Virus record (IMG/VR): IMGVR_UViG_2786546475_000019
Span: 974 to 64,973 of that record
Direction: 5' to 3' (one strand)
Length of the DNA: 64,000 bases
From: a virus
Both the position numbers and the translations under genes were made by a program. A model generated the notes under the pieces. The model did not search any database, was not told the origin of the DNA, and saw nothing but the letters and a program-made list of their open reading frames with translations. Shown here piece after piece: positions 10,527 to 64,000 of the stretch (position 1 is the stretch's first letter; every line of letters begins with the position of its first letter).

Positions 10527-11554
10527 TGGCTACTACCAAAACATTACTTCAAGGCTTTGACGGGCGGGAAGACTTTCGTGATATGCTTCGCGAAATGCGA
10601 ACGGCTGCCCTTCGGTCTTGGGACATTACTCTTGCAATACGTATTCGCAAAGTTCTTCGAAACAATAAACTGTTTGAAAAAGTCTACGACCATGCAACTG
10701 TAACTTCGGCTCAAGCTCTACTTGATAGTCCACGGCTCTCGGAATTTGGCGATGGGGAGTTTGGCAAATGGTTCCTCGATTGGTTCAAGAACGGTGGGGC
10801 TCAAGCTATCATTGAGTTCATTCGAGCATTGCTCCCGTTGTTTGGAGCTTTTATGAGCGTTCTGTTACCGCTTCTTATCACTTTGTCTTTGTGTGCCACG
10901 GCCCAAGGTCAAAGTATCAAAGGAGCCGAAACTGCTAAACCGGGATCGCTCGTTGTCTTAACGCCGGTGGATGCTGACGATGTTCGAACAGTTTGGAACT
11001 TGAATTACCCCGAACAATTCGAGGAGTATGCAGAAGAAAACGGCAAGCTTTTCATTGCAATGCCGTCAAAAACAATTTCGTTTTCACTTCTGGTGATTCC
11101 AAACGATACAACACTCCCAATTCGTAACCTACGTCATACAGTTTCTCCGTCTGACGCTCCAGTGGTTCCGGGCCCCGGTCCTGATCCAGTAGTGCCGAAA
11201 CCTCCAGAGATTGACGTAACTCAATCTCCAATTTATCAATTTGTCAAGAACAGTTTTGAGAGTATCCCGGACCCTAATAAGCGAGAAAGGGCCGGTAAGC
11301 TTGCAAAATCCTTTGGCATCATTTGTGCTCAAATCAAGAATAAAGAAATTACAACAGTCAACGACCTCTTGACTGATATTCGAGAGGCTAACCTGAAAGA
11401 TTGGCCCGAAGACTCTAGGCAACTGTGGACCTCTTTCCGTAACGGTATGGCTCGCCAGTTTGATACTTTGGAAGACGCTGGGGAGTTGGAGACCGTTGAC
11501 GATTTCTACCTTCATTTGAAAGCAATTCAAGTCGCTCTTGAGGAGTCAGTTTAA
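10526..11554 (+). CDS. Hypothetical protein with a central TM segment and a Pro-rich linker
   Basis: ORF of 342 aa. LLPLFGAFMSVLLPLLITLSLCATAQG looks like an internal signal or anchor. Confidence 0.4.
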   Translation: MATTKTLLQGFDGREDFRDMLREMRTAALRSWDITLAIRIRKVLRNNKLFEKVYDHATVTSAQALLDSPRLSEFGDGEFGKWFLDWFKNGGAQAIIEFIRALLPLFGAFMSVLLPLLITLSLCATAQGQSIKGAETAKPGSLVVLTPVDADDVRTVWNLNYPEQFEEYAEENGKLFIAMPSKTISFSLLVIPNDTTLPIRNLRHTVSPSDAPVVPGPGPDPVVPKPPEIDVTQSPIYQFVKNSFESIPDPNKRERAGKLAKSFGIICAQIKNKEITTVNDLLTDIREANLKDWPEDSRQLWTSFRNGMARQFDTLEDAGELETVDDFYLHLKAIQVALEESV

Positions 11555-12492
11555 TGTACCCAATTCGTAGATTACCCGACGACCTTATCGTCAGTGAAGG
11601 GTTAACAGCTAAACAAATCAAAAGACAAGACGTTGGCTGGGATGAAATTGATCTCCAGCTTGATAAAGCTTTTGGCCGAGAAAATGAAAACCGATGCCCG
11701 ATTTTTATTGCAGACACCGGTCTTCCTGAACATCCAGATATTCCTAAAGCCCAAGAAGCTTGGAATTTTACCGACGACCCTTCTGTTGTGGATTTGAACT
11801 TCCACAGCACTTGGATCAATGGTAAGATGACGGCGTACAACAATGATATTGGGTACGAAGGTATTTGCCCTGAGGATACTCCAGTATTCATACTTAAAGT
11901 CTTGAACAATCAGGGTTCTGGTTGGCGTATGCTTCAAGCAATGCGTAAAGCGTTAGATTTCTGGGTCAACCATCCTAAACGTCGCTCAGGGGAGTGGGTT
12001 GCGGCAGTTTATAATATGAGTTACGGGGGTGGCGGCTATTCACAAGATGAACAAATTTTGTTTAAGGATATGATAAAAGAGAACATTCTTCCGTTTGCTG
12101 CCAGCGGCAATGAAGGACGTTCGGCTCCCTCATTCCCTGCGAAATATGAAGGAGTTCTATCAGTTGGAGCTTATGACCCTCAACGAGAGAAAGCAAGCTT
12201 TACTAATTACGGCCCGTGGACTGATTTTGTTGCTCCCGGCGTCAACGTCCCTTCCACAATCGGCAAAAACAAGTACGGCCCATATAGTGGGACGTCAATG
12301 GCTTGCCCAATTAAAGCAGCGTGTGCCGCTAATTTTATCAGCTCTCGCCCTAATGATAAATGGATGCATGATGTTCCAGGTTATCAAGAAGCTGTACAAC
12401 CGTATATGGAGAATCTGCCCGGCACTTGGGATGGAGACGGAGTATTCCTTCCCGCAAAAGGAACAGTTCGCAACAAATACTTTTTCTGGTAA
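11554..12492 (+). CDS. Subtilisin-like serine peptidase (S8 family), no signal peptide
   Basis: Motifs: IADTGL (Asp), HST...KVLNNQGSG (His region), ASGNEG (Asn oxyanion), GTSMACP (Ser). Confidence 0.65.
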   Translation: MYPIRRLPDDLIVSEGLTAKQIKRQDVGWDEIDLQLDKAFGRENENRCPIFIADTGLPEHPDIPKAQEAWNFTDDPSVVDLNFHSTWINGKMTAYNNDIGYEGICPEDTPVFILKVLNNQGSGWRMLQAMRKALDFWVNHPKRRSGEWVAAVYNMSYGGGGYSQDEQILFKDMIKENILPFAASGNEGRSAPSFPAKYEGVLSVGAYDPQREKASFTNYGPWTDFVAPGVNVPSTIGKNKYGPYSGTSMACPIKAACAANFISSRPNDKWMHDVPGYQEAVQPYMENLPGTWDGDGVFLPAKGTVRNKYFFW

Positions 12493-31748: not shown

Positions 31749-32255
31749 ATGATACTTCAATGGCTTTCTGATCTGCTTCAAATGTTCACGGACCTCGTTC
31801 CTCGGCCTTTGATTGTGCGGGCTGACGAGGAGCTAGTATCATTTGTCTTTGGTAAATACACTAGGAAGCTTGGGCCAGGTTGGTACATTTCTTGGCCAGC
31901 TTTTGAAGAATTAGAAGTAGTTCAAGTCAAAAGAGATTTTGTTTCTCGCCAACAGAAATTTTGTAAAAACGGCATCACTTATGCTTATTCTTGGCAAGTG
32001 CCTTACGAAATTACTGATGCCTTAAAGATGGTAGTTAACACGTACGACTACCAAGAGACAATTGCTGATTTTGTAGAAGTGTCTTTAGCGGAGTGTTGGC
32101 AAAACTTTGGACCTGCCGAAATTTGTAACCTTGAAACACAAGATAAAGTGTTTGATAAAGTTCGCGGTATTTTGGAAGAGTACGGGGTTGAAATTAAAGC
32201 GTTTCGTATCACCTCGCACTCCGAAGTAATTGCTTTATCCATTTGGGAGAAATAA
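31749..32255 (+). CDS. SPFH/band-7-like domain protein (short, no obvious TM)
   Basis: VRADEELVSFVFGKYTRKLGPGWYISWPAFEELEVVQVK matches the SPFH N-terminal core pattern (V.RFGK...L.PGLHF.IPF...V). Confidence 0.45.
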   Translation: MILQWLSDLLQMFTDLVPRPLIVRADEELVSFVFGKYTRKLGPGWYISWPAFEELEVVQVKRDFVSRQQKFCKNGITYAYSWQVPYEITDALKMVVNTYDYQETIADFVEVSLAECWQNFGPAEICNLETQDKVFDKVRGILEEYGVEIKAFRITSHSEVIALSIWEK

Positions 32256-37585: not shown

Positions 37586-38236
37586 TTAAACCATATTCAA
37601 AGTAATTGGAGGTTTGTCGCTTTTTAAAAGTTTAGCTAGCTTTTCTAACGCTCGCTTTTCAAGTTGACGAACTCTTTCTCGCGAGATATTAAGAGTTTCC
37701 CCAATAGTCTTAAGAGGAATCCCTTGGGCTCGTAGCCTCAAAACTAAAGCATCTCGACTATTTAACTCAAGAAAAGCTTTTTCTAGAGCAATAAGCTCCT
37801 CTTGCCATTCTATCAAATCCCTATCAAGACATTCTAAAGGTGTAACAGGGTTATTAAATAGCCCGTGTAAGGTTTGAAACATTGGAGCACGAGCTATAGC
37901 AGCTTTAGCTCTGTCAAGATGAGCTGGATTTGGAGATACTTTAATTAACTCCACCTTGGTTTTCATGTAAGTTATCATTCGTTGTTTCACCCACGGAGTG
38001 GCGTAAGTTGAAAACTGATAACCTTTACTAGGGTCAAATTTTTTGACCGCCTGACATAACCCACTCATTCCTTCTTGAATTAAATCGTCTAAATCAAGCT
38101 TAGAATTTTTCTTGGCAAAAGACACCGCTATCTTGATAACCAATCCTTGATTATCTAACACTAACCGATTGAGTGCTTCATCAGCTTCCTTTCTAGCAGA
38201 ATGATATTTTTGTAATAACTCGTCATTAGTATCCAC
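37586..38236 (-). CDS. Sigma-70 family RNA polymerase sigma factor (group 3/4-like, SigF/FliA-sized)
   Basis: Region 2: DLIQEGMSGLCQAVKKFDPSKGYQFSTYATPWVKQRM. Region 4: TIGETLNISRERVRQLEKRALEKL. Confidence 0.65.
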   Translation of the reverse strand: MDTNDELLQKYHSARKEADEALNRLVLDNQGLVIKIAVSFAKKNSKLDLDDLIQEGMSGLCQAVKKFDPSKGYQFSTYATPWVKQRMITYMKTKVELIKVSPNPAHLDRAKAAIARAPMFQTLHGLFNNPVTPLECLDRDLIEWQEELIALEKAFLELNSRDALVLRLRAQGIPLKTIGETLNISRERVRQLEKRALEKLAKLLKSDKPPITLNMV

Positions 38237-40710: not shown

Positions 40711-41024
40711 TACTTCTGCTCCTCGAAATGCTTAGATGGAAAACGATGCCAGCCAAATAATAACCGCTCCATGTTCCGTGGTTCGTCGATCTCAGCAACC
40801 GGACGAGCACCACCGACCGTGGTGAACTGGACGTACATACACTTCTTACGCTTATACCCAATACACAGATGGCCTTTCAACCGTTTGATAGGTCCACGGT
40901 ACATGTAGTATTTGGTGCGACTGAGCCGCCGGAACCGTTTCGTTAACCTTTCCATGACTGTTCCCAAGCGTGCAACGCTTTGAGCAAGTTCCTCAGTTGA
41001 ACAACTTAAAAGGTTATTTATCAT
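40710..41024 (-). CDS. Hypothetical protein
   Basis: ORF of 104 aa. Confidence 0.3.
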   Translation of the reverse strand: MINNLLSCSTEELAQSVARLGTVMERLTKRFRRLSRTKYYMYRGPIKRLKGHLCIGYKRKKCMYVQFTTVGGARPVAEIDEPRNMERLLFGWHRFPSKHFEEQK

Positions 41025-41377
41025 TTGTTAAACTCCTCAATATATTTTATCAACTCAGGTGTCGGTTCTGCAACAATAATCGGTAACATTAGTCCGATCT
41101 CACTGATACTTCGAGCCAACGTTTCAACATAATCTTGAGGTGCGACCCGTATAGGGTTTGGTGTTAGCTCGATATCTTCAATTTTCAAAACTTTTTGAGT
41201 CCGATTATCCGGCCCACGAACCACGTAACATTTGATAGAGTCGTACCCTACCAACTTACACGCTTCCAATCTTGCGTTGCCGCCAAGGACCACGTACTTT
41301 TTCTTAAGTTTGAAGCCTGGAGTCGAAAGCACACAAGCCGCAGCTCCGAGGGCCGCCATAAATTCTCTACGTTCCAT
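41021..41377 (-). CDS. ParB/Srx-like N-terminal domain protein (short)
   Basis: VLGGNARLEACKLVGYDSIKCYVV resembles the ParB GxxRxxA box. Confidence 0.4.
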   Translation of the reverse strand: MERREFMAALGAAACVLSTPGFKLKKKYVVLGGNARLEACKLVGYDSIKCYVVRGPDNRTQKVLKIEDIELTPNPIRVAPQDYVETLARSISEIGLMLPIIVAEPTPELIKYIEEFNK

Positions 41378-43911: not shown

Positions 43912-44387
43912 TCCGGCTCAGTAGTTCCAACGTATCCCATACCTTTGCCAAGAATCTTGTCTTGATAATAATACCATCGGTATGAGAAGATACAGTCTTC
44001 GAAATCTCCGGCCAAGCCTTTATAATATCCAGGCATAGCCAAGTTTGGAGGAGTAAGAGGGCCACGTCGTATGTAACACGGAGATTGATAAAGATACCCA
44101 ACCCGGTTCCATACTTCATGTAAAGCTAACCCTCTCTTATCCCGCTCCTTCAACAACGCTATCATATGCTTCAAAGTCCATTGATAATTTGAATCAGTGG
44201 AACGAACCCATTGAGTTGACGGGTGATTTGCGAAGCATGGTTTACACATTCCTTGACGCCAAAGTCCAACTTCGTCATGTGCCGTTGATAACATTTGGGC
44301 ACACTCAATCGGCATTTTTGTTAAATGGTCCGTGGCCATGTAGCTAGCTGCAAGGACCGGGTCCATATCAAGGAAGAAAACATTCAC
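43881..44387 (-). CDS. Conserved phage protein of unknown function (N-terminal FFLDMDPVLAASYMATDHLTKMPIECAQMLSTAH)
   Basis: ORF of 168 aa. The N-terminal motif looks familiar from phage/viral proteins but I cannot assign a family. Confidence 0.35.
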   Translation of the reverse strand: MNVFFLDMDPVLAASYMATDHLTKMPIECAQMLSTAHDEVGLWRQGMCKPCFANHPSTQWVRSTDSNYQWTLKHMIALLKERDKRGLALHEVWNRVGYLYQSPCYIRRGPLTPPNLAMPGYYKGLAGDFEDCIFSYRWYYYQDKILGKGMGYVGTTEPEWLLHLKGKL

Positions 44388-44770
44388 GCCCCAAGTCCAA
44401 GCGATTTGATGGAAGCCCTTTTGAGTGCTGTCAAGGTAACAACACGTCCAAGTAGCTTGGAAAGTGTTTCTTCGAAGTTATCAAGTTGCTCCGATAATTT
44501 GTATTCGAAGCCGTTCAAAAGTATCACTTCTTCCAAGTTCTCAGAAACCCAAGAATTTAAGTCTTGGTCTTTCACAAGATACTTACCGTCTTGAATCGTT
44601 AACTTGCCATTGATAGTTGGGCCTTTCAATTCGTCTCGCCAAATTTTCACGTTTTCAGGAGCGGTTATGTTAATTGAAGCAGCTCCTGATCCTGCATCAA
44701 AGATTGTTACCCGAACGTCGTTCCCAATTGTAAATGATTGCGACGCCCAGCGTTTAAGAGTTAACGCCAT
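44384..44770 (-). CDS. Hypothetical protein
   Basis: ORF of 128 aa. Confidence 0.35.
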   Translation of the reverse strand: MALTLKRWASQSFTIGNDVRVTIFDAGSGAASINITAPENVKIWRDELKGPTINGKLTIQDGKYLVKDQDLNSWVSENLEEVILLNGFEYKLSEQLDNFEETLSKLLGRVVTLTALKRASIKSLGLGA

Positions 44771-51284: not shown

Positions 51285-51629
51285 TCAGTCTCCTCTTATC
51301 AATTGATAAATTTCTTTGTAAGTATGTACTGGCATATTATACTTGTCCGCTATATCCTGCCAGTTCTCTTCCCACCAGCTAAAAGAATGACACTGACCCC
51401 CAACTTTCAACACTCCAAAGTCTTGGTTGACTTCTACTTTGCGGCCGTGTAAAATTCCGAGTGTTATCAGTTTGCCGTAGCCGTAGCCGTAGCCGTAGCC
51501 GTAGCCGTCGCCGTCGCCGTAGCCGTCGCCGTAGCCGTAGCCGTAGCCGTAGCCGTCGCCGTAGCCGTAGCCGGTCCCGTAGCCGGTCCCGTAGCCGGTC
51601 CCGTAGCCGTCGCCGTGGTTACTTAACAT
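51285..51629 (-). CDS. Gly-Tyr repeat protein: N-terminal (GYG/DGYG)n low-complexity region (~50 aa) plus a ~60-aa C-terminal domain
   Basis: RBS taaggaactatcaATG. Encoded by a (GCCGTA/GCCGTC)n hexanucleotide array at ~51470-51610. Confidence 0.45.
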   Translation of the reverse strand: MLSNHGDGYGTGYGTGYGTGYGYGDGYGYGYGYGDGYGDGDGYGYGYGYGYGKLITLGILHGRKVEVNQDFGVLKVGGQCHSFSWWEENWQDIADKYNMPVHTYKEIYQLIRGD

Positions 51630-54014: not shown

Positions 54015-54038
54015 GATAATCCTTTCAAGTGAGAAACA

Positions 54039-54086
54039 GTAAACAACGGTCCGGGCTACCCGTGGGCAGCACGGTACGTTGGCTAT
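54039..54086 (-). promoter_or_regulatory. Conserved palindromic element copy D
   Basis: gtaaacaacggtcc ... ggtacgttggctat. Confidence 0.6.
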
Positions 54087-54142
54087 TGATAGACCTAGGC
54101 CCGAAGGCCCAGGATTAAATCCAGATTGTCAAAGATCAAAAT

Positions 54143-54285
54143 TATCATTTGTGTCCCGCCACTGGCGGAAATGATATGATAGCTTACAGACCTACGGTCA
54201 ATCTATTCTATACTTAATATCGGCAATTGGGAAGTAAGAAAATAGATTATTTTTGAAAATAATCAAAACTTTATCATATCATTTT
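54143..54285. promoter_or_regulatory. Operator-like region. It has the palindrome TATCATTT-gtgtcccgccactggcgg-AAATGATA. It also has the inverted pair AAATGATATGATA (54169-81) and TATCATATCATTT (54273-85)
   Basis: Seen directly. The same architecture recurs at 59145-59359. Confidence 0.55.
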
Positions 54286-54628: not shown

Positions 54629-55396
54629 TTAACTCCCAAGAATATAAAGTGCTTCAACCACGGAAGATCGAATCTCGCCAGCAGATTGATAGATTCGATA
54701 CTCGTACTTTTCAGTCCATTCCTGAGCTTCCAAGTATGTGTTCTTGTAGTGATTGATAACAACAGTGCCTTGTCGGTCCTTGGCCCACGAAACAATTTCC
54801 TCAAGCGAGATCAGATCGAACCCTTGTGTCTCATCGTAAGGCGGGTCCAAGTAGAATAACGCATCGACACTATCATATGAAGCTAGCTTCTTCCAGTCCC
54901 AATTCTCGATTTGCCACTTGCTAATACGAGCACGAAGCAGGGGCCAGATTCTCATTTTACTGGCTACATTCGGCTGCTTCTGTGAGAAGTTGCGAGCGTA
55001 GTTAAGCCTCCGCCCCAAGTAAGACATAACCGCTGTCACGTACCACTTTGCTGCACGCTTCACGGGGTTACTTGATAGCTGCCAAGTCTTTTTGCAATGC
55101 AACCATTCTTCTTCGGAAGAAGGATGATACTTTTTAAGTTCTTCGACAAGCTCCTCGTAGTGGTTACGGAACGCTCGATAGAAGTCAATGATCCCGGAGT
55201 CTTTATCATTAAACACCATGTACGGGAACTGAGCCACGTTCAATGATACCATTCCTGTCCCGCCAAACACGTCAATAAATTTCTTGTGCGTGTCTCGCAT
55301 GTGGTTCAGAATAGGAAGAATATGTTGCAAGGCCCGTGCCTTAGACCCTATCATTCGAAACGGAGCTTCACGTTTCTTGAAGTCTTTATCAGTCAT
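54629..55396 (-). CDS. DNA N6-adenine methyltransferase, Dam family
   Basis: DVFGGTGMVSLNV (motif I, FxGxG) and YLDPPY (motif IV DPPY). Confidence 0.7.
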   Translation of the reverse strand: MTDKDFKKREAPFRMIGSKARALQHILPILNHMRDTHKKFIDVFGGTGMVSLNVAQFPYMVFNDKDSGIIDFYRAFRNHYEELVEELKKYHPSSEEEWLHCKKTWQLSSNPVKRAAKWYVTAVMSYLGRRLNYARNFSQKQPNVASKMRIWPLLRARISKWQIENWDWKKLASYDSVDALFYLDPPYDETQGFDLISLEEIVSWAKDRQGTVVINHYKNTYLEAQEWTEKYEYRIYQSAGEIRSSVVEALYILGS

Positions 55397-55979: not shown

Positions 55980-58586
55980 TTAAGTTGCCCTTTCTCCCTT
56001 AATCGTTTCCCTTTTAACACCGTCTGGAGTTTCAACAAAACGAAACCCGTTGTCTTTCGGAGCTTCATACGAGAAGCGAACATTGTAGATACATGTCTTT
56101 TGCATCTCGTCAATAGCTATCAAATACATTTCCGCTAGGTTCTGTTCGAACTTCTTACGATTTGCTCGCCCCCCGTCGTCCATGTAGTTCTTATACAGAA
56201 GTTGAAGCTCCACTTTTGATCCAGGCTGTTCTTGGAGCACGGACCGTGCAAAGAGTTCAACGTCGGTTCGGTTCAAGTCCGCAGCTTGCTCTTTATCAAC
56301 CGTATCCACAACAGGAACATTCAAACGCCCCTGAGTTGGCGGTATTTGATACGCTAACAAGGCATACAGAAACGCGGGAGCTTGAGCTTCCAGTTGTTCC
56401 AAAAGAAGTTTCTTTGGAATAACTTTATCTGGCTTCTTGGGTACATTGATAACCGTGATTCGGGTGTCTCCGGGAAGTATCGGACAGAACTCACGATTGT
56501 TCGCGGTGTGAATCCAATGCGACGTATTAGGTATCATGTAAGCGGGCTTGCCTTTTGTGTTGACTGAGATTACTTTGGACGTAACATAGTCTTTAACTTT
56601 TTGATAAACAGTGGAGTCCGAGTTCAAGTTAATCTCCTCAAGAACGCAAAGCACCGCCCCAGCAAGTTCACTGTTGAACGAGCTGACTAACGCGTTCTCC
56701 GCTCGAACGACACCGGGACTAAACAACAATGATAATGCTTCATGCAAAATCGACTTCCCGGTGTCTTGCTCCGTGGAATACAAAAACAGAAACGGCAAAG
56801 GTTCAAACGGTTGTTGTATCAATGACGCGACCCACGCAAACAGATAGTCGTGTCCTTTGCAAATACCGTTCTCCGTGAACCAATTATCCTTACGAACGTA
56901 TTGATCTAGAGAGTGTCCGATATGGTCCAGAATCTTCATCCAAAGATCAAAGTTTCCTTCTTCTGGAGTGTGTCGCAGTTGAGCAGCTCCCCGATTCCAT
57001 AAACGATTACCCGGATATTCAGACTCAAAGGGTCGTGAAACAATGTTCCAGGGCTTCATGATAGCTTCACCCTGCATCTGCTGAATCTCTTTAGTGTTCA
57101 TTCCTTGGCTTTTGAGACCGAGCGTCAGGTTGGCGATCGGTTCTTCGATCCAACCGTTATCATGCGTCTCAATAGCCCAACCGGCGTCCACGCTACCCAT
57201 AATCATGTGACGAATCTGCGTATTCGTGTCCACGTCATACGGGCTACCAGTACGAGACTCTTTTATCACTTTCAACCAACGTGTTCCTTTTGCGATCCAA
57301 CCTTCAATGCCGCCTGGGTCGCCTTTGATTTTCGGAATCTCAATTTTAAGCTTGTTTTCCTTTAGCTGAGTGACAGTTGCTTGACGAGCTATCAATACTT
57401 CGTCAATGGCTTGCATTTCATGTTGCTGGAAAAGCTTAGTCAATTTATGAGCAGGAAGCACCATTCCTTTTTTATCATCTTCTAACGCTCCTGAATCTTT
57501 CACCAAGGTCCAAAGCGGTGGAACATAATTCAAATACGTGCGAGTCCATCCGTTCTTCGTGGTCCACGATTCATGTTCCTTGGCTTCGTTGCCATATCGG
57601 TACACGGCCCATGCTCCGTGTGGAAGCGGATACGCGAAGCAGTTCTGTTTGTGGAGATCAGTTCCGTCACTGATAGTCTGGAAATCGCCTTTAAACCCGA
57701 GTTCTTTGGAAGCTTGCTCCAATAGTTTAGTGTGCGTGATAAACATCTTTCCTTCCGCGTTCCAGTAACCAAACGCGGAGTTGTTATTCATCCACTCAAG
57801 CAAACGCTCATGTTCTTCTTCAAGCGTCACGGACTGTTTGTGCTTGATAATTTCTTCCATACGGTCATCAGCATAAGAGTGTTTCTTCTTACCGCTCACG
57901 ACGCCAATATGATCTCGCCATCCCAGCGGCTCTTTGATATGGGCCTCAGCTTCCTTAATAATTTGAAAGCCGTTCTCTCCCGTTTTCCGTGACCATACCC
58001 ACATATTACAACCGAAAACATCAACTGCAAGGTCAAAGTCGAAACCAGTCTCAAGACATAGTTGACTCAGAACGCCGCGAGCAAGAGCAGCGTGTTCTGC
58101 CCGACTTGTCGTAGTGATAAGGTCTTCAAAGAAAACATATAAGTGGTAGCCAGCTCCACTTTTAGATCGTTGTACTCGCACCCAAGGTACGTTACACGCT
58201 CGTTGTTGAATATCAAGTAGATCAGTCTGCGTTAGCTTGTGCTTGTGCCGAGCTGAGTGGCCCACGATACCGTCAAAGTCGAAAGCAACATATCGCGAGA
58301 TGCATTGCCCAAAGTCCCACCCCGATAAACCAACCATTGAGGCGTGATCTTCCAGGCTGAACTTGATATTTCCTTCATCGTATTTGCCATCAATTCGAAA
58401 ATTCTTCCAGACTTGAACACCGTCAGTCCACTCCCGGTAGGTCCGACCTTTGTATTCCTTATCAACAGGCTCGCCGCCATCAGCGGCTACGTTTACTTGA
58501 ACTTCCATTGTAGGCGAGTATAACGCCGCCATGTGGGGTTCTGCGTTATCACGCAAGAATCGTTCTAAAGCTTCACTTTTACGCAT
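55980..58586 (-). CDS. Bifunctional primase-helicase: AEP/PrimPol-type primase N-terminal domain plus a D5/P4-alpha-like SF3 helicase C-terminal domain
   Basis: VAFDFDG ... SGAGYHLYVFF (AEP motifs). LYSTEQDTGKS Walker A. ATG at 58586 with a gagg RBS preferred over the TTG at 58592. Confidence 0.75.
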   Translation of the reverse strand: MRKSEALERFLRDNAEPHMAALYSPTMEVQVNVAADGGEPVDKEYKGRTYREWTDGVQVWKNFRIDGKYDEGNIKFSLEDHASMVGLSGWDFGQCISRYVAFDFDGIVGHSARHKHKLTQTDLLDIQQRACNVPWVRVQRSKSGAGYHLYVFFEDLITTTSRAEHAALARGVLSQLCLETGFDFDLAVDVFGCNMWVWSRKTGENGFQIIKEAEAHIKEPLGWRDHIGVVSGKKKHSYADDRMEEIIKHKQSVTLEEEHERLLEWMNNNSAFGYWNAEGKMFITHTKLLEQASKELGFKGDFQTISDGTDLHKQNCFAYPLPHGAWAVYRYGNEAKEHESWTTKNGWTRTYLNYVPPLWTLVKDSGALEDDKKGMVLPAHKLTKLFQQHEMQAIDEVLIARQATVTQLKENKLKIEIPKIKGDPGGIEGWIAKGTRWLKVIKESRTGSPYDVDTNTQIRHMIMGSVDAGWAIETHDNGWIEEPIANLTLGLKSQGMNTKEIQQMQGEAIMKPWNIVSRPFESEYPGNRLWNRGAAQLRHTPEEGNFDLWMKILDHIGHSLDQYVRKDNWFTENGICKGHDYLFAWVASLIQQPFEPLPFLFLYSTEQDTGKSILHEALSLLFSPGVVRAENALVSSFNSELAGAVLCVLEEINLNSDSTVYQKVKDYVTSKVISVNTKGKPAYMIPNTSHWIHTANNREFCPILPGDTRITVINVPKKPDKVIPKKLLLEQLEAQAPAFLYALLAYQIPPTQGRLNVPVVDTVDKEQAADLNRTDVELFARSVLQEQPGSKVELQLLYKNYMDDGGRANRKKFEQNLAEMYLIAIDEMQKTCIYNVRFSYEAPKDNGFRFVETPDGVKRETIKGERAT

Positions 58587-59017
58587 TAACAAACCTCATT
58601 AACAAATTGATATCATTTTCGATAACAGATTCGAGAAAGCCCGAAACAACCAGACTTCACCCTATAGCTACGAGTGGCGGGATATCGGATTGCCCCACAA
58701 AATGAAAATAAATCGAGTTAATGGAAATTGATACGAAACTTTAATGACGTTTCCAGTGCAGCGTTATCATTATTCTCTCACGTACGCGAAGCCATTAACG
58801 TTTTTGATACTCAAACCTTTAATTTAAGCTTCTACTTCTTATGGGTACGAGGTGAAAGTAAAATATAGTAGTAGTGTAAATATTATAAGGATTTCAGCCG
58901 CTCAGGCGAGCTTCTGATAAGAAAACGTTAATGAGCCAAATTTTACGTTAAATTGGTATGTTTCGACGGGAATTGATACCGTCTCACTGCTCTCCTCCCG
59001 AACCTTGCATCTTGGCT

Positions 59018-59059
59018 CACGCTACACGTATCACGCTACACGTATCACGCTACACGTAC
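59018..59059. repeat. cacgctacacgtat x3 tandem 14-bp repeats (iteron-like), followed by the ACGT-rich palindrome tacgcgta
   Basis: Seen directly. Confidence 0.85.
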
Positions 59060-59144
59060 GCGTAGCACGTGGGTACGTGCCAGGGCCAAAGACCTTGAGT
59101 TCTCTTTTAAGTCTCGGAACTGACGTGTAAATTAGTAAGCGGTT

Positions 59145-59359
59145 ATCATTTTGCGTGAGCAAATGATAATTCTCGCGTGCTCCCGCGTGTCCCGCACGTG
59201 CGACTATTTAAATACGCGACGTGCGTAAATGATATGATACATGGTTTTCAAAATACTTGAAAATATTTTCAAAATACGGGGCAATCCTGCCCGGTTTTAT
59301 TCGTAGCTATAGGGGGAAAGTAGACTGTTTTACTTTCCAAAACGACTATCATATCATTT
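59145..59359. promoter_or_regulatory. Operator-like region. It has the palindrome TTATCATTTtgcgtgagcAAATGATAA (59144-69). It also has the inverted pair AAATGATATGATA (59227-39) and TATCATATCATTT (59347-59). Inside it are the 16-bp palindrome ttgaaaatattttcaa and two copies of ttttcaaaatac
   Basis: Seen directly. Same architecture as 54143-54285. Confidence 0.55.
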
Positions 59360-60403
59360 GTGGAGAAGTCCAACATGGCAGAAGAAACTCAAGCTACCGA
59401 AACTATCATTTCAGAAGGATTGACTCAAGAGCAGTTCGAATCCGTGGGTAGCGACATTCAGGCGATTTCTATCAATGAGATCACCGTCCCTGAAGTTAAG
59501 CTTCGTGGCGTGAACACCGAAGGGGAAGAATACTTGGAACTCAAGGATTCTATCAAATCGCAAGGACTGTTGCAGAACATTACTGTACGTCCCGTCGAAA
59601 TCGCTGGCAAGCAAGGCTACGAACTTATCACTGGGCTCCAGCGATATACTGCTTGCAAGGAACTCGGACATGAGACTATCGACGCTCGTGTGAAAGAAAT
59701 GTCCGAGCAAGAAGCTTGGTTGTGGATGATCCACGAAAACACTCAACGTGTTACGCAAAAAGCGTCAGATATCACCAAGCTCTTGAAGCGTCTGATCGCC
59801 AAAGATCCAACGATGTCTATTCCACGACTCGCGAAGCTTTTGTCGAAGTCCGTGCCCCAAGTACAGAACTATCTGGCACTTGATAAACTGACCGACGAGG
59901 CAAAGGAATTGGTCGATGATGAAACCATCGGTTTGACCAACGCAGTTGCTCTCGCCAAGCTCCCACCTGAGGAGCAGGAAGACTTGCTTGCTGACGCGTC
60001 AACAATGACCGTTGCTGAATTTGTTCCACTTGTAAACGAACGAAAAGAAAAGGTTGATCAAGCCAATCGTGAAGCTCGTGAACAGGAAAAGAACACGTTT
60101 TCTCCGAAACCAAAAGCTCGCAAGAAAGACGATCTCGTCACCGAGCTTGGAATTATCATGGGCACGGAGACTGGCACTTCGCTTCTTATGGAGTGCTTGA
60201 ACGGTCAGGATGTTGATACTTCCAACCAGAATGTCAAGGCAGTTATCACTCAGACAATGGAGTGGGTCCTGAACCTTGATCCAGCGTCCGTCGACGCTCA
60301 ACGAGCGAAATGGGAAGACGCCAAAAAGAAGCGGGAAGAACGAGAAAAAGCGAAAGCTGCCGCTCGTGCCGAACGTGAAAAGGCGAAAGCCCTGGAAATC
60401 TAA
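59360..60403 (+). CDS. ParB-like N-terminal domain protein with a highly charged KE-rich C-terminal tail
   Basis: YELITGLQRYTACKELG matches the ParB GxxRxxA box. RBS ggagaag. Confidence 0.55.
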   Translation: MEKSNMAEETQATETIISEGLTQEQFESVGSDIQAISINEITVPEVKLRGVNTEGEEYLELKDSIKSQGLLQNITVRPVEIAGKQGYELITGLQRYTACKELGHETIDARVKEMSEQEAWLWMIHENTQRVTQKASDITKLLKRLIAKDPTMSIPRLAKLLSKSVPQVQNYLALDKLTDEAKELVDDETIGLTNAVALAKLPPEEQEDLLADASTMTVAEFVPLVNERKEKVDQANREAREQEKNTFSPKPKARKKDDLVTELGIIMGTETGTSLLMECLNGQDVDTSNQNVKAVITQTMEWVLNLDPASVDAQRAKWEDAKKKREEREKAKAAARAEREKAKALEI

Positions 60404-60487
60404 ATTGATAGTTTCAATTTAGTTTCAATTTAGATTCCATCTGATACTTCAATTTTAAACTTCAACTTCAATTTAAAAGGACATTTT

Positions 60488-61156
60488 ATGTCTCAACTTG
60501 CACAGCTCAAGAAAAAAGTTTCCAACAAACCTGATCCTCAAGAACGTAACTTGATAACATCCGGCTCTAACATGCCGTACGTCAAGTTGTGTGGCTCAAG
60601 CACCACGCTTGTGAAGCAGGGTATCATTCCAATGGGGCATCACTCCCTAACGGAAGGTCAGAATCACATTGACCTTGGAAACGAGTTTCTTGCTGCGTTT
60701 ATTTCAAATCGTCCAAAAGCCGTTCACTACGGCGAAGATTTGACTATCAGTTATGATCCGACGAAACCTGAGTTTCAGGAGATTATGAAGAAAGCTGATT
60801 TGGGTGGACAAGCCGCTCGTGGGTATTCCTACGGTTACGAGTTTCTTCTATACTTGCCAGAGCAAAACAAAATGGCAACGTATCATTTTGGAAATCCCAC
60901 GGCTCGCCAGTCAACTGATGCGATCCTTGCATTGTTTGACGACCACAACTTCTTCATGGCGACGGTCAGCTCCACACTGATCGAGCGGAAAGGCAATTCA
61001 TGGCACGGTCCTGTAGTCAAATACTACGAGAACCCTGTTGAAATGCCAAAGTTTGATGCTGAAACTGTTCAAGCTTCCATTGAGAAGTTTGATAATCCTG
61101 TCCCATTGATCGGTACCGAAGTGGCTACTGACGAAGTGGCAAACGATCTTGAGTAA
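60488..61156 (+). CDS. Hypothetical protein
   Basis: ORF of 222 aa. AT-rich direct repeats upstream. Confidence 0.4.
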   Translation: MSQLAQLKKKVSNKPDPQERNLITSGSNMPYVKLCGSSTTLVKQGIIPMGHHSLTEGQNHIDLGNEFLAAFISNRPKAVHYGEDLTISYDPTKPEFQEIMKKADLGGQAARGYSYGYEFLLYLPEQNKMATYHFGNPTARQSTDAILALFDDHNFFMATVSSTLIERKGNSWHGPVVKYYENPVEMPKFDAETVQASIEKFDNPVPLIGTEVATDEVANDLE

Positions 61157-61442
61157 GCGACCAAAGTGGGAGTTCTTTGAACCTCAAAAATTCAAAAAGC
61201 TTCTATACGAAGCAGACCAGACTGATTTGTCTGGTCTGCATTCGCTTACTGATATTTCACAACATTACGGCGAGCGTAATAGACACCACTATTACGCTCT
61301 CGTTTTCGTTTGTGACATTGAGGAAATAACTCGTATTGCCCCACACGTCAACGTAACAATCTGTACGGTCGTTGATAAAAAGTATTATTGTTTGGCCTCA
61401 GGAAGTAAAGAATCATGGATCAAGCTCGGTTACATGAAATAA
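61149..61442 (+). CDS. Hypothetical protein
   Basis: ORF of 97 aa. Confidence 0.3.
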   Translation: MSKRPKWEFFEPQKFKKLLYEADQTDLSGLHSLTDISQHYGERNRHHYYALVFVCDIEEITRIAPHVNVTICTVVDKKYYCLASGSKESWIKLGYMK

Positions 61443-63412
61443 GAAATTCACACAAAGGGATAAACGTCATCCGCCCCAGCTTAATGAGTAAGCTGGCAGA
61501 AGGTCCAGTACGTCTAAAGCTCACGTACCAAGGCCGACGTTATCCTATGACGTTCAACATCAACAGCGATGCCACTGAAATATCAATTAAGTTCCCCTTC
61601 TCAAGAAAAGGGCTTGAGCTGGTCAAGACTCGCTTCGGGGGACGTAAATGGGACAAAACCAATGAGCGTTGGACCATGCCGCTCACAATGCGTAACTTGT
61701 TCCTAATGGACCTACTCTCAGGAGGCAAACCTCATTTAAATTGGCGTCGTGAGGAAGACTACACCGACTTTATCAAAGAGTTCTGGGCTCAACGAGATAA
61801 ACCTTTCGAGTGTGAATTGTTTCAACATCAGATTGAAATGATAAATCTTGCTCTCAACTCTCGACACGTAATCCTGGCCGCAGATATGGGCCTTGGCAAA
61901 ACGTTAACGGCAATCGTTGTTATGGAGATTCTAGGAATTCCCAAGTGTACTTGGGTGGCTCCTAATGCTCCGTTAGCTCAAGCAAAGAACGAGTTTCGAG
62001 ATTGGCGAACACTGACTCAGGCTCGGTGGCTCACGTATCGTGGAGCCGTAAAATGGCAAAACGAATACACTGGTAAAGCTCCGAAAGCTTTTATCATTGA
62101 CGAATCTGCCTACATTAAAAACAAATCACAACGAACAGATGCTTGTTTGTACATTGCCGACTGCGTACGAGAGGAGCATGGCCTGGACTCATTAATCCTG
62201 CTCCTGTCGGGTAAACCAGCTCCTAAGTCCCCACCTGATTGGTTTAACCAAGTGGAAGCAATTTGTCCCGGAGCTATCAACGAGAATTCAAAATATACTC
62301 TTGAACGTCGCTTAGGTCTTTGGAAACAATCTGAATACGGCGAGTTCCAAGAACTTGTTACTTGGTATGATAACGAAGATAAGTGTGCCCATTGCGGGGA
62401 GATTAAACTTCACCCTAACCATCAAGAGCTTGACTTCGAAGAATTTATTCGTCACGGCTCTACTGGCGAACTAGCCACGTATGAGCGTCACGAATTCCAA
62501 CCGTCGGTAAACGAAGTTATCAAGTTCGGTCAACGGCTTAATGGCTTTTGTGGTGTGTGGCAAAAAGAAGATTGCACTGACTTGCCGCCAAAGCAATTCC
62601 ACGTGGAACAACTCGTTGTTACTCCTGAAATGTTGAACTTAGCTAAGTCTTACATGGCGAAAGCAACATCAGGTTCCGAGTCTTTGATATTTTTACGAAC
62701 ATTATCTGATGGTTTTGTTTACCAGAAGATACCAACCGATCAACTTGCTGTATGCCAAGGGTGTCATGGCGAAAAGCAAGTCGAAATGATAGACCCTGAC
62801 ACTAACGAAACGTTTTGGGCTGATTGTCACACGTGCCACGGTGAAGGATCAGTGCCGCTTATTGAACGAGTCTATCAAACGTACCCAACACCTAAGTTGG
62901 ATTACTTACACAAGTTACTTGAACTTCATAAGGAGACTGGACGATTTGTGACATTTGCAGCTTTCCAAGCATCAGTAGACATCATTACCAACTTTGCATT
63001 GCAAAAGAATTGGCAAGTGATACAAGCTGATGGGCGAGGCTGGATGTTCCACAAAGGTATTGATAACGTTGCTAAGATGAAGAAAGGGGAAATGCTAGAT
63101 TACTTCCAGAAAGGCCCGGACGACCGCGTATTATTCGTAGGTCAACCCGGAGCTGCTGGTAGTGGATTGACATTGCATCGCTCACCCGGAGTCTTCTTTT
63201 ACTCCAATGATAACGTACCGAATAACCGGTTTCAAGCTATTGATCGAGTTCATCGTATTGGTATGCGTGACGATGGTGGTCACGTCTACGATTGTTTGTG
63301 TTTACCGTCGGATAAACGTATTTTGTCCACGTTAAATAATTCAGAACGATTATCATCTATTACTCTTGACCAGTTGAAGAAGGATTATGAGCACTACCAC
63401 CCCACAAATTGA
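61415..63412 (+). CDS. SNF2-family helicase with an inserted CxxC...CxxC zinc finger
   Basis: ILAADMGLGKT (motif I), IIDESAYIKN (II), LFVGQPGAAGSGLTLH, QAIDRVHRIGM (VI). Confidence 0.7.
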   Translation: MDQARLHEIRNSHKGINVIRPSLMSKLAEGPVRLKLTYQGRRYPMTFNINSDATEISIKFPFSRKGLELVKTRFGGRKWDKTNERWTMPLTMRNLFLMDLLSGGKPHLNWRREEDYTDFIKEFWAQRDKPFECELFQHQIEMINLALNSRHVILAADMGLGKTLTAIVVMEILGIPKCTWVAPNAPLAQAKNEFRDWRTLTQARWLTYRGAVKWQNEYTGKAPKAFIIDESAYIKNKSQRTDACLYIADCVREEHGLDSLILLLSGKPAPKSPPDWFNQVEAICPGAINENSKYTLERRLGLWKQSEYGEFQELVTWYDNEDKCAHCGEIKLHPNHQELDFEEFIRHGSTGELATYERHEFQPSVNEVIKFGQRLNGFCGVWQKEDCTDLPPKQFHVEQLVVTPEMLNLAKSYMAKATSGSESLIFLRTLSDGFVYQKIPTDQLAVCQGCHGEKQVEMIDPDTNETFWADCHTCHGEGSVPLIERVYQTYPTPKLDYLHKLLELHKETGRFVTFAAFQASVDIITNFALQKNWQVIQADGRGWMFHKGIDNVAKMKKGEMLDYFQKGPDDRVLFVGQPGAAGSGLTLHRSPGVFFYSNDNVPNNRFQAIDRVHRIGMRDDGGHVYDCLCLPSDKRILSTLNNSERLSSITLDQLKKDYEHYHPTN

Positions 63413-64000
63413 AATGATTCCGTTAAGCGACATCTATTCAGATGATTCGTTTAACTGTCGTCAAAAATTTAAAGATCGCGAAGTCAGAGGACTTTCCCGA
63501 AGTATCAAAGCTAAGGGATTGTTTACTCCGATTATCGTTCGACCAAAGCCCGGACCTAATGGTGAGAAATACACTATTGTCGCGGGACACCGTCGTAAAC
63601 GAGCCACGGAGCTTGCAGGCCAAACCCATATTCAAGCTATCGTTAAGAACCTTACGGACGACGAAGCTCGAAATATCAATTTGAAAGAGAACTTGGAACG
63701 CCAAGATTTGACACTTTGGCAAGAAGTGAAAGCTCTTGAGTGGTATCGAGATCAACAACTGAACGTCTTTCAAATTATGGACCGTATCAATCAAACAGAA
63801 GCGTGGATTGAGAACCGGCTTCTCGTTCTTCGGATGCCTGCGGGGGTTCAAGAAATGGTTGAAATGGGTCACTTAACTTTAGGCCATATTCGAAGCTTGA
63901 AAAAGTTTATGAATCGTCCTGACTTGCTTGGAAAGTATGCAGCCAAGCTATCAGAGCGGTACGCTTTGGGCAACAAAAACGTCACTCTTGCCCACATTCT
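63387..64000 (+). CDS. ParB-like N-terminal domain protein (3' partial at the window end)
   Basis: TIVAGHRRKRATELAG ParB box. The ORF runs off the window. Confidence 0.5.
   Translation, partial: MSTTTPQIEMIPLSDIYSDDSFNCRQKFKDREVRGLSRSIKAKGLFTPIIVRPKPGPNGEKYTIVAGHRRKRATELAGQTHIQAIVKNLTDDEARNINLKENLERQDLTLWQEVKALEWYRDQQLNVFQIMDRINQTEAWIENRLLVLRMPAGVQEMVEMGHLTLGHIRSLKKFMNRPDLLGKYAAKLSERYALGNKNVTLAHI

Follow-up and report, generated by a model that had tools for sequence, protein, structure and literature searches.

What do two ParB genes do on a phage genome when no gene for the partition ATPase ParA accompanies them? The question is raised by a block of five open reading frames (ORFs) in a viral DNA stretch of 64,000 nt (IMG/VR record IMGVR_UViG_2786546475_000019, positions 974–64,973), which is called the window hereafter. 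The block occupies the + strand from position 59360 to the window end and encodes, in this order, a first ParB (ParB1), a 222-amino acid (aa) protein, a 97-aa ORF, an SNF2-family ATPase, and a second ParB (ParB2) that is cut by the window end. An initial annotation, made from the nucleotide sequence without database searches, had proposed for these genes a DNA-tracking or modification/partition function. We found that ParB1 and ParB2 are two distinct, separately conserved core ParB types in the replication operon of an uncultured phage lineage, and we consider it probable, at roughly 0.55, that they form a ParA-independent pair acting in phage replication and early-gene control.

The ParB block is part of a conserved replication operon

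The block could be followed past the window end on a 71,449-bp Tara Oceans scaffold (L003), which encodes an identical helicase protein, overlaps the window at 99.6% identity, and extends beyond it. On L003, ParB2 is followed by a 157-aa protein of unknown function, a family-A DNA polymerase (PolA, 824 aa), two small ORFs, a VRR-NUC nuclease, an ATP-dependent DNA ligase, and three further unknown genes, after which the scaffold wraps into the start of the window. Because PolA, the nuclease, and the ligase lie downstream and a primase gene is divergent from ParB1, the block is the promoter-proximal part of a rightward phage DNA-replication operon.

The same layout was observed in four metagenome relatives whose helicases are 33–47% identical to that of the window. 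For a broader sample, IMG/VR was scanned with an alignment of the 222-aa protein, and the 80 loci obtained were annotated by profile hidden Markov models (HMMs) built in this analysis. ParB1 is immediately upstream of the 222-aa gene, and first after the divergent control region, in all 80 loci. The divergent primase is present in every locus with enough upstream flank (59/59), and the SNF2 gene in every locus with enough downstream flank (48/48). In all 48 complete loci, the divergent primase and, on the other side of the control region, ParB1, the 222-aa protein, SNF2, ParB2, and PolA have the same order and strand, with only small variable genes inserted between these anchors and no ParA among them. 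Throughout this large uncultured phage lineage, the replication module is thus strictly syntenic.

Further copies were found in bacterial genomes. A scan of GTDB with the helicase alignment, taking one genome per species, led to 13 fetched loci, of which 11 hold the module core; ParB2 scored above threshold in 8 of these 11, and 6 leave the contig or the flank before ParB2 or PolA. Nine of the 11 are in metagenome-assembled genomes (MAGs) of the Planctomycetota (Thermoguttaceae, Pirellulales, Planctomycetaceae, and Aureliella). Of the GTDB loci (L091–L102), several are on contigs of 0.1–1 Mb, and one is within a 4.2-Mb chromosome; an example locus is OY762224.2 at 1.49–1.52 Mb. Because the module lies inside large contigs and a 4.2-Mb closed chromosome, the Planctomycetota copies are apparently integrated prophages, and they suggest temperate relatives and Planctomycetota as the host phylum.

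The 222-aa family is absent from the cultured phages of INPHARED, whose closest ParBs and helicases are generic matches (22–35% identity). The block itself had no Megablast match among 50,697 phage records, and tblastn searches of cultured phages with the 222-aa protein, ParB1, and ParB2 as queries returned either nothing or generic ParB at ∼30% identity. A single-protein scan of IMG/VR with the helicase returned one spurious locus.

As an observation, the initial annotation of this block was confirmed; its interpretation was borne out in part. The five ORFs are real and all on the + strand, the ParB and SNF2 identities were confirmed by Pfam, PHROG, and PDB matches, and no ParA was detected: the deviant Walker A motif (KGGxGK[ST]) is absent from the six frames of the window and of its 9.4-kb continuation on L003, where ∼2 kb coincide with the window start, and no scanned ORF has a CbiA/ParA or integrase match in Pfam. 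The suggestion of a function beyond simple plasmid partition was also supported. The lead toward DNA modification was not supported. Dpd-type clusters had been named as a parallel, and annotation past position 64000 yielded PolA, VRR-NUC, and ligase genes, with no methyltransferase partner downstream of ParB2 on L003 and no Pfam match to tRNA-guanine transglycosylase (TGT)/DpdA, to QueC, QueD, or QueE of preQ0 synthesis, or to FolE in the scanned ORFs of the window or downstream, which argues against a Dpd-type system.

Two distinct ParB types are conserved in the module

Both proteins have the ParB N-terminal domain and a ParB helix-turn-helix (HTH). ParB1 matches Pfam ParB_N at 3.3e-14 (53 bits; cut-off 26.3) and HTH_ParB at 3.7e-08, and its PDB relatives are Spo0J, ParB, and Noc, with Spo0J (1vz0) the best at 2.7e-11. 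Its start is likely the ATG at 59375, which is preceded by GGAG, and not the GTG at 59360, because the gene calls agree on three independent contigs with an identical helicase. The complete ParB2 of L003 matches ParB_N at 1.8e-20 (73.2 bits against the same cut-off) and HTH_ParB at 1.9e-05 (25.1–26 bits; cut-off 22.6). Its top PDB match is also Spo0J (1vz0, 5.3e-25), in an alignment that extends through the HTH; ParB and Noc were matched as well, and KorB at 2e-4.

In characterized ParBs, the residues of boxes I to III are involved in cytidine triphosphate (CTP) binding, hydrolysis, and clamp closure. A check of these residues, which the initial annotation had recommended, separated the two proteins. 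The ParB2 of the window has FNCR in box I, GHRRKRA in box II, and ENLERQDL in box III, and the signature is kept in 61 non-redundant orthologues: the N and R of box I (FNCR) are present in 61/61; the G of box II (GxRR) in 61/61 and each Arg in 60/61; and the E, N, and R of box III (ENxxRxxL) in 61/61. By these motifs, ParB2 is classed as a canonical chromosomal-type ParB with every CTP-clamp motif. ParB1, in contrast, has GLQR in box II, and DG-L-[H/Q/Y]-R is the form found across the lineage. None of its 84 orthologues has the Arg-Arg pair of box II, and the catalytic Glu of box III, usually replaced by Ala, is present in only three, one of them the window protein itself (ENTQR). The G, R, and N are nevertheless invariant in the 84 sequences and the HTH is present, and on this pattern ParB1 is a degenerate ParB type.

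The two proteins also differ at the C terminus, a Lys/Glu-rich helix in ParB1 and a different conserved domain in ParB2. That each of the two paralogues is under its own purifying selection points to two different roles. As for gene arrangement, the first 26 nt of ParB2 (start at 63387) lie within the end of the helicase gene, and in 30 of 67 loci the SNF2 and ParB2 genes overlap or are directly adjacent.

Proteins encoded between the two ParB genes

The 222-aa ORF has no Pfam or PHROG match, and none of 52 family members (0/52) matches any Pfam model at E ≤ 0.01; phiC31 gp3 itself matches the Pfam family Gp3-like (PF18897) at 1.7e-17. In an AlphaFold2 model built from these 52 sequences, the protein is predicted to adopt an oligonucleotide/oligosaccharide-binding (OB) fold, closest to phiC31 gp3 and with an OB-based core. 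An initial model from 3 sequences was poor (predicted local distance difference test score, pLDDT, of 58.8) and was replaced by the 52-sequence model. The gp3 gene of phiC31 is located between the exonuclease gene and those for primase and polymerase. Its homologue TG1 gp25 binds single-stranded but not double-stranded DNA in vitro and has been described as a phage single-stranded DNA-binding protein (SSB) moonlighting as a directionality factor (PMC11795197). Because of the gp3-like fold and the acidic C-terminal tail, we regard the 222-aa protein as a probable phage SSB of the phiC31 gp3/TG1 gp25/T4 gp32 structural type. It differs from these in that its 52 members lack the Gp3-like Pfam match, and no serine integrase, for which phiC31 gp3 is the directionality factor, is present in this phage. 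A three-sequence profile of the protein found 1290 clusters (50% identity) in 1.84 billion proteins, and the family is a good marker gene for the phage lineage.

The SNF2 protein matches phrog_62 at 9e-42. The Pfam models SNF2-rel_dom and Helicase_C match weakly, with individual scores near or below cut-off, and the PDB matches are exclusively SNF2-family remodellers (ISWI, Snf2, and INO80-type). The motifs DMGLGKT, IIDES, LSGKPAPKSPPDW, GQPGAAGSGLTL, and QAIDRVHRIGM, which stand for Walker A (motif I), DExx (motif II), and motifs III, V, and VI, are present and conserved in seven homologues; motifs I, II, V, and VI are intact. The zinc-finger insert described at the outset is real and consists of a CxxC...HxxH element and a DnaJ-type CxxCxGxG...CxxCxGxG ribbon (aa 443–480), which are kept in six of the seven. 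The N-terminal 100 residues are conserved in the family, and a segment at about aa 50–95 has a pattern like the HARP domain of SMARCAL1. Pfam HARP was matched in one of the seven members at E 0.071; the SMARCAL1 HARP structure 4o66 was the third of four PDB matches of the seven-sequence profile (E 0.63) and the sole PDB match of a 37-sequence profile (E 0.54); and hhalign gave a HARP probability of 84%. Taken together, these weak scores all lean in one direction, and a HARP-like domain is suggestive only. The likeness to SMARCAL1 and its partner RPA would lie in a HARP-like segment ahead of the SNF2 ATPase and in a gene beside that of an OB-fold, SSB-like protein; it is limited by the low HARP similarity (E 0.07–0.6), by the presence of one such segment only, and by the zinc-ribbon inserts of the phage protein. 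Among cultured phages, the nearest helicases are the gp02 proteins of the YuA-like Pseudomonas phages (Mesyanzhinovviridae; ∼22% identity, E 1e-11 to 1e-12). These are also encoded in an early/replication region with a RecD/Dda-like helicase nearby, but the similarity is very low, and they have neither flanking ParB genes nor a gp3-like SSB.

The 97-aa ORF has no Pfam match and a marginal one in PHROG (phrog_22515, E 0.0026), and it is absent from the gene calls on identical contigs. It is 45% identical to a 118-aa gene in the same place in the closest relative (L007), and is probably a genuine gene, though one restricted to a clade. Between the SSB-like and helicase genes, the stretch 61157–61414 has an RNA fold z-score of −6.2 against shuffles and contains two perfect hairpins of 11 bp each, of which the second precedes a U-rich run. 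The first (GCAGACCAGAC...GUCUGGUCUGC), which sits within the conserved 97-aa ORF, recurs in L007 (9723–10000) with a compensatory A-U to G-C change. The stretch may be an attenuator or a processing site; an Rfam scan of 58000–64000 gave no match.

The divergent control region and a lineage-wide cis-motif

The region between the primase and ParB1 genes is AT-rich (GC 0.38 at 58600–58999) and located at the cumulative GC-skew minimum, and it may harbor promoters, operators, and the origin. An iteron and palindrome region had been reported next to the block, and its elements are indeed there: three tandem 14-mers, a perfect 16-bp palindrome, and a convergent pair of the 10-mer TGATATGATA. The 14-mer TCACGCTACACGTA has no further exact copy in the window, and with ≤3 mismatches it gave 8 matches against 3.9 expected. 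The single copy of the palindrome in the window is about what chance would give (∼1 expected). The 10-mer TGATATGATA has four exact copies in the 64 kb, which form two convergent pairs, 100 and 117 bp apart. When ≤1 mismatch is allowed, its matches number 15, where 3.4 ± 1.7 would be expected and 0/100 shuffles reach as many. The two regions holding these pairs also have flanking sequence in common.

As side observations on the same region, the 14-mers run into CGCGTAGCACGTGGGTACGTG within 59017–59080, and further CGCGTG/CACGTG/GACGTG cores are found at 59153–59225. This iteron-like array, rich in ACGT cores, has no counterpart in the four closest relatives.

Across the lineage, the control region is marked by the 9-mer GATTTGATT, of the TGATxTGATx type. 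It occurs 97 times in the primase-ParB1 intergenic regions and 28 times elsewhere in the fetched loci, that is, at a density of 1.69 vs 0.024 per kb, a 72-fold enrichment. The usual arrangement is one inverted pair near each gene start (L008–L090). In the variants TGATT-TGATT, TGATA-TGATA, and TGATG-TGATG, both 5-mers change together, as expected of a tandem half-site recognized by a protein.

A probable ParA-independent role in replication and early-gene control

According to the explanation that we favor, both ParBs would be sequence-specific DNA-binding parts of the replication and early-control machinery and would work without ParA. With the Arg-Arg pair lost, the catalytic Glu usually lost as well, and the HTH kept, ParB1 would most likely bind its sites without hydrolysis; at the TGATxTGATx pairs it would occupy operator or origin and regulate its own expression. 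Because ParB2 retains all the residues of the CTP switch, it would most likely load at a phage-specific site and close as a CTP-dependent sliding clamp on phage DNA. From its frequent translational coupling to the SNF2 gene, ParB2 is probably a partner or recruiter of that motor or of the replisome. The SSB-like protein and the HARP-like SNF2, taken to be a translocase on double-stranded DNA, may be akin to the RPA–SMARCAL1 pairing, and would then serve in fork remodelling or strand re-annealing.

The nearest known system is ParABS with its ParB/Spo0J clamp. ParB2 has the same N-terminal CTPase domain, HTH, and boxes I–III, and ParB1 the same two domains. The differences are that here there is no ParA and no canonical parS, that the two paralogues are divergent and encoded in a phage replication operon, and that ParB1 is without the Arg-Arg pair and usually without the catalytic Glu.

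Several results weigh against this explanation. No canonical parS (≤3 mismatches) was found in the window, and the 7 three-mismatch matches in 1.6 Mb of related loci are at chance level; nor was a perfect 16-bp palindrome common to the lineage, or any parS-like shared site, found. The TGATxTGATx sites overlap sigma-70-like −10 hexamers (TATCAT) and could be promoter elements rather than ParB sites; a sigma-70 promoter scan gave 11 sites vs 8.3 ± 2.3 in shuffles, not above chance. The mutual information between motif variant and the residues of ParB1 and ParB2 was no higher than for PolA, SNF2, and primase, and the association of motif variants was dropped as a test of the binder, being confounded by phylogeny. 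The HARP assignment is statistically weak. Two distant loci depart from the pattern, one from a Chitinophagales MAG (L100) that is without ParB2 and has the primase downstream, and another (L099) in which ParB2 scores just 3e-16. No cultured phage with the module was found, and every member is known as sequence. Finally, ParB/Srx domains can also be nucleases or NTPases (nucleoside triphosphatases; PMC5512222).

Alternative explanations

The alternative that survives best, itself unlikely, is transcription control only, in the manner of KorB: one or both ParBs, as CTP-dependent or as plain HTH proteins, would repress or silence the divergent early promoters and a second promoter region at 54.1–54.3 kb and have no direct role at the replisome. 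It is in agreement with the position of ParB1, always the first gene past the divergent control region, with the repeated sites that adjoin both divergent gene starts and overlap −10-like hexamers, with the recurrence of the TGATATGATA site pair in a second intergenic region, and with the presence of KorB among the PDB matches of ParB2. It leaves unexplained, however, why ParB2 is fixed between SNF2 and PolA and often coupled to SNF2, and why two different ParB types are invariant. KorB (with KorA, on the IncP plasmid RK2), Noc, and VirB are cases of the ParB family used beyond segregation, and ParB1 resembles KorB in lying at a divergent promoter region with operator-like repeats, to which the weak PDB match of ParB2 can be added. 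KorB, on the other hand, has a ParA partner (IncC) and binds a 13-bp palindrome, whereas the present genes have TGATxTGATx pairs and replisome genes as neighbors. Control of transcription overlaps with the combined role in replication and early-gene control that we prefer, and does not exclude it.

We also considered a more specific proposal, which we rate as quite unlikely, in which ParB2 would be a CTP-closed clamp serving as a replisome accessory, first loading at the control region and then tethering or guiding SNF2 and/or the clamp-less family-A polymerase, and ParB1 would be a degenerate site-bound loader or origin marker.

A nuclease or nickase of the ParB/Srx kind is improbable, yet together with KorB-like control it is a serious rival. 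In this view, either ParB1, the likelier candidate given its DGxHR-type motif, or ParB2 would under nucleoside triphosphate control nick the repeats to start replication, or degrade host DNA. ParA-less ParB-domain proteins have been reported as nicking endonucleases/NTPases and proposed to aid the early replication of invading elements (PMC5512222); the PHROG neighbors include families named 'ParB-like partition nuclease'; and the position beside an origin-like region would fit an initiator. Yet both ParBs have a full HTH, their best matches are partition-type ParB, Spo0J, and Noc and not Osa, Srx, or GmrS-type proteins, ParB2 has the complete CTP-clamp signature, and the phage already has nucleases of other kinds, VRR-NUC and an RNase T-like exonuclease.

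Partition of an extrachromosomal (plasmid) prophage, with a host ParA or through a ParA-independent pathway, is very improbable. Both proteins are true members of the ParB family with an HTH, and no integrase was detected in the scanned ORFs of the phage; but there is no ParA in the window or in the L003 stretch that wraps to its start, no centromere-like parS array was found, the genes lie inside a replication operon with PolA adjoining in every genome, and the relatives within 0.1–1 Mb contigs and the 4.2-Mb chromosome look integrated and would need no partition.

The least credible reading is a Dpd-like or other modification of virion DNA, with a ParB-like protein and SNF2 working alongside a base-exchange or transferase enzyme: Dpd clusters (DpdA TGT, DpdB ParB-like) do bring a ParB-like protein together with SNF2/DEAD helicases, and a Dam-type methyltransferase is conserved near the primase and in one relative (L010) found directly after ParB2, but DpdA/TGT, the preQ0 pathway, and other transferases are absent from the scanned ORFs, the ParBs have a partition-type HTH and ParB2 the CTP-clamp signature, the thymidylate synthase is an ordinary ThyA, and the conserved partners are replication proteins.

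Other features of the window

The coordinates of the block, of the control region, and of the other features are given in Table 1.

Table 1. Features of the 64,000-nt window discussed in the text
Feature	Position	Strand	Remarks
Divergent control region	58593-59374		between primase and ParB1; 782 bp
ParB1	59375-60403	+	342 aa; ParB/Srx N-domain, ParB HTH, and Lys/Glu-rich C-terminal helix
222-aa protein	60488-61156	+	predicted OB fold, acidic C-terminal tail; probable SSB
97-aa ORF	61149-61442	+	function not assigned; overlaps structured stretch 61157-61414
SNF2-family ATPase	61415-63412	+	665 aa; HARP-like N-terminus (suggestive only), two zinc-binding inserts between RecA lobes
ParB2	63387-64000	+	first 204 of 280 residues in window; canonical chromosomal-type ParB by its motifs
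AEP-type (archaeo-eukaryotic) primase fused to D5-like (DUF5906) helicase	55980-58592	-	divergent from ParB1
D12-class N6-adenine DNA methyltransferase (Dam-like)	54629-55396	-	Pfam MethyltransfD12 1.3e-18
14-mer tandem repeats	59017-59058	+	three exact TCACGCTACACGTA copies, then CGCGTAGCACGTG
TGATATGATA pair, convergent, exact	59230-59239 (+), 59347-59356 (-)		flanks palindrome
Perfect 16-bp palindrome TTGAAAATATTTTCAA	59257-59272		only one in window
Second TGATATGATA pair, convergent, exact	54172 (+), 54272 (-); 54172-54281		in intergenic gap 54015-54285
118-aa orphan ORF	41021-41377	-	ParB_N halves in swapped order
CsrA-like regulator	44384-44770
Sigma-70-family factor	37586-38236
SPFH/Band 7 protein	31749-32255
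Subtilase (S8)	11554-12492
Cupin	55578-55976		matches PHROG 'cysteine dioxygenase'

The primase matches Pfam DUF5906 at 1.3e-15 and phrog_1156 ('DNA primase') at 1.8e-19, with AEP-TOTE faint (0.0099, below cut-off). The Dam-like methyltransferase, an ordinary enzyme of the D12 class and the sole methyltransferase in the neighborhood, is encoded three genes past the primase and on the opposite strand to the block, and it recurs near the primase in three relatives (L008, L009, and L010); in the window, a cupin-like protein and a small ORF lie between the two. The same leftward arm encodes ThyA (3e-96), a sigma-70-family factor, MazG, a DHH/DHHA1 phosphoesterase, a RecD-like helicase, CsrA, a pyrimidine-dimer glycosylase, an RNase T-like exonuclease, and a deoxynucleoside monophosphate (dNMP) kinase. 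Structural genes make up the rightward arm (1–33 kb), among them those for a gpA-type terminase, a P22-like coat protein, and a tape measure protein. The source, with this type of coat and terminase, is an uncultured tailed phage whose genome measures ∼71–72 kb. In NCBI, the proteins of the window are labeled 'MAG: hypothetical protein CL489_... [Acidobacteria bacterium]'. The contig was probably mis-binned into an Acidobacteria MAG, since it looks like a complete phage genome of that length.

The initial annotation had counted three ParB-like paralogues. Two of them stand as full ParBs, of two types, but the third, at 41021–41377, is an orphan, sub-threshold fragment: its Pfam ParB_N score is 23.9 bits, below the gathering cut-off of 26.3, and the half with the GxxR box (aa 25–61) precedes the match to the N-terminal half (aa 63–112), the reverse of a normal ParB_N. 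The swapped order was seen by PHROG profiles, pairwise alignment, and two local HMMs. No homologue of this ORF was found in 5.8 billion proteins or in the fetched loci. It lies outside the conserved module, and a circular permutation or the remnant of a rearrangement could account for it. Its hydrophobic N-terminus with RR-x-F (MERREFMAALGAAACVLS) resembles a twin-arginine (Tat) signal.

Some other genes of the window are of separate interest. The CsrA-like regulator, the sigma-70-family factor, and the SPFH/Band 7, subtilase, and cupin proteins are unusual cargo. In a 114-aa ORF (51285–51629, − strand), the N-terminal half contains a long repeat of Gly, Tyr, and Asp, GDGYGTGYGTGYGTGYGYGDGYGYGYGYGDGYGDGDGYGYGYGYGYG. 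A 453-aa ORF (856–2217, + strand) at the head of the structural arm has no family match and ends in an (Ala-Glu)8 repeat; its segment 'SGNRRMLAL' looked ParB-like by eye, and the candidacy of this ORF as a fourth ParB was unsupported by Pfam and local ParB HMMs.

Biological significance

The protein families described herein are known. The fixed ParA-less two-ParB replication module and its cis-motif, however, are not described in the literature searched, where we found no account of a ParA-less two-ParB replication module. A canonical and a degenerate ParB are fixed as core genes of a replication operon, without ParA, across a lineage whose marker gene has ∼1290 clusters. The phages concerned are an uncultured group tied to Planctomycetota hosts, with no cultured-phage match in the collections searched. 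In addition, a probable function, that of a gp3-like SSB, can now be given to a large unannotated protein family. Should the HARP assignment hold, the neighborhood of an SSB gene and a HARP-SNF2 gene would parallel RPA and SMARCAL1, a pair that remodels stalled forks.

The CTP-switch clamps of the ParB family serve in chromosome and plasmid segregation, with a few offshoots (Noc, KorB, and VirB). If ParB2 were a replisome accessory, it would represent a new ParA-independent job for this switch in replication. More generally, if the two ParBs act on replication or its control, the use of the ParB CTP switch would be extended, with a defined set of partners (the SSB-like protein, the HARP-like SNF2, PolA, and the TGATxTGATx sites), and many orphan phage annotations of the 'ParB-like nuclease/partition' kind would be explained.

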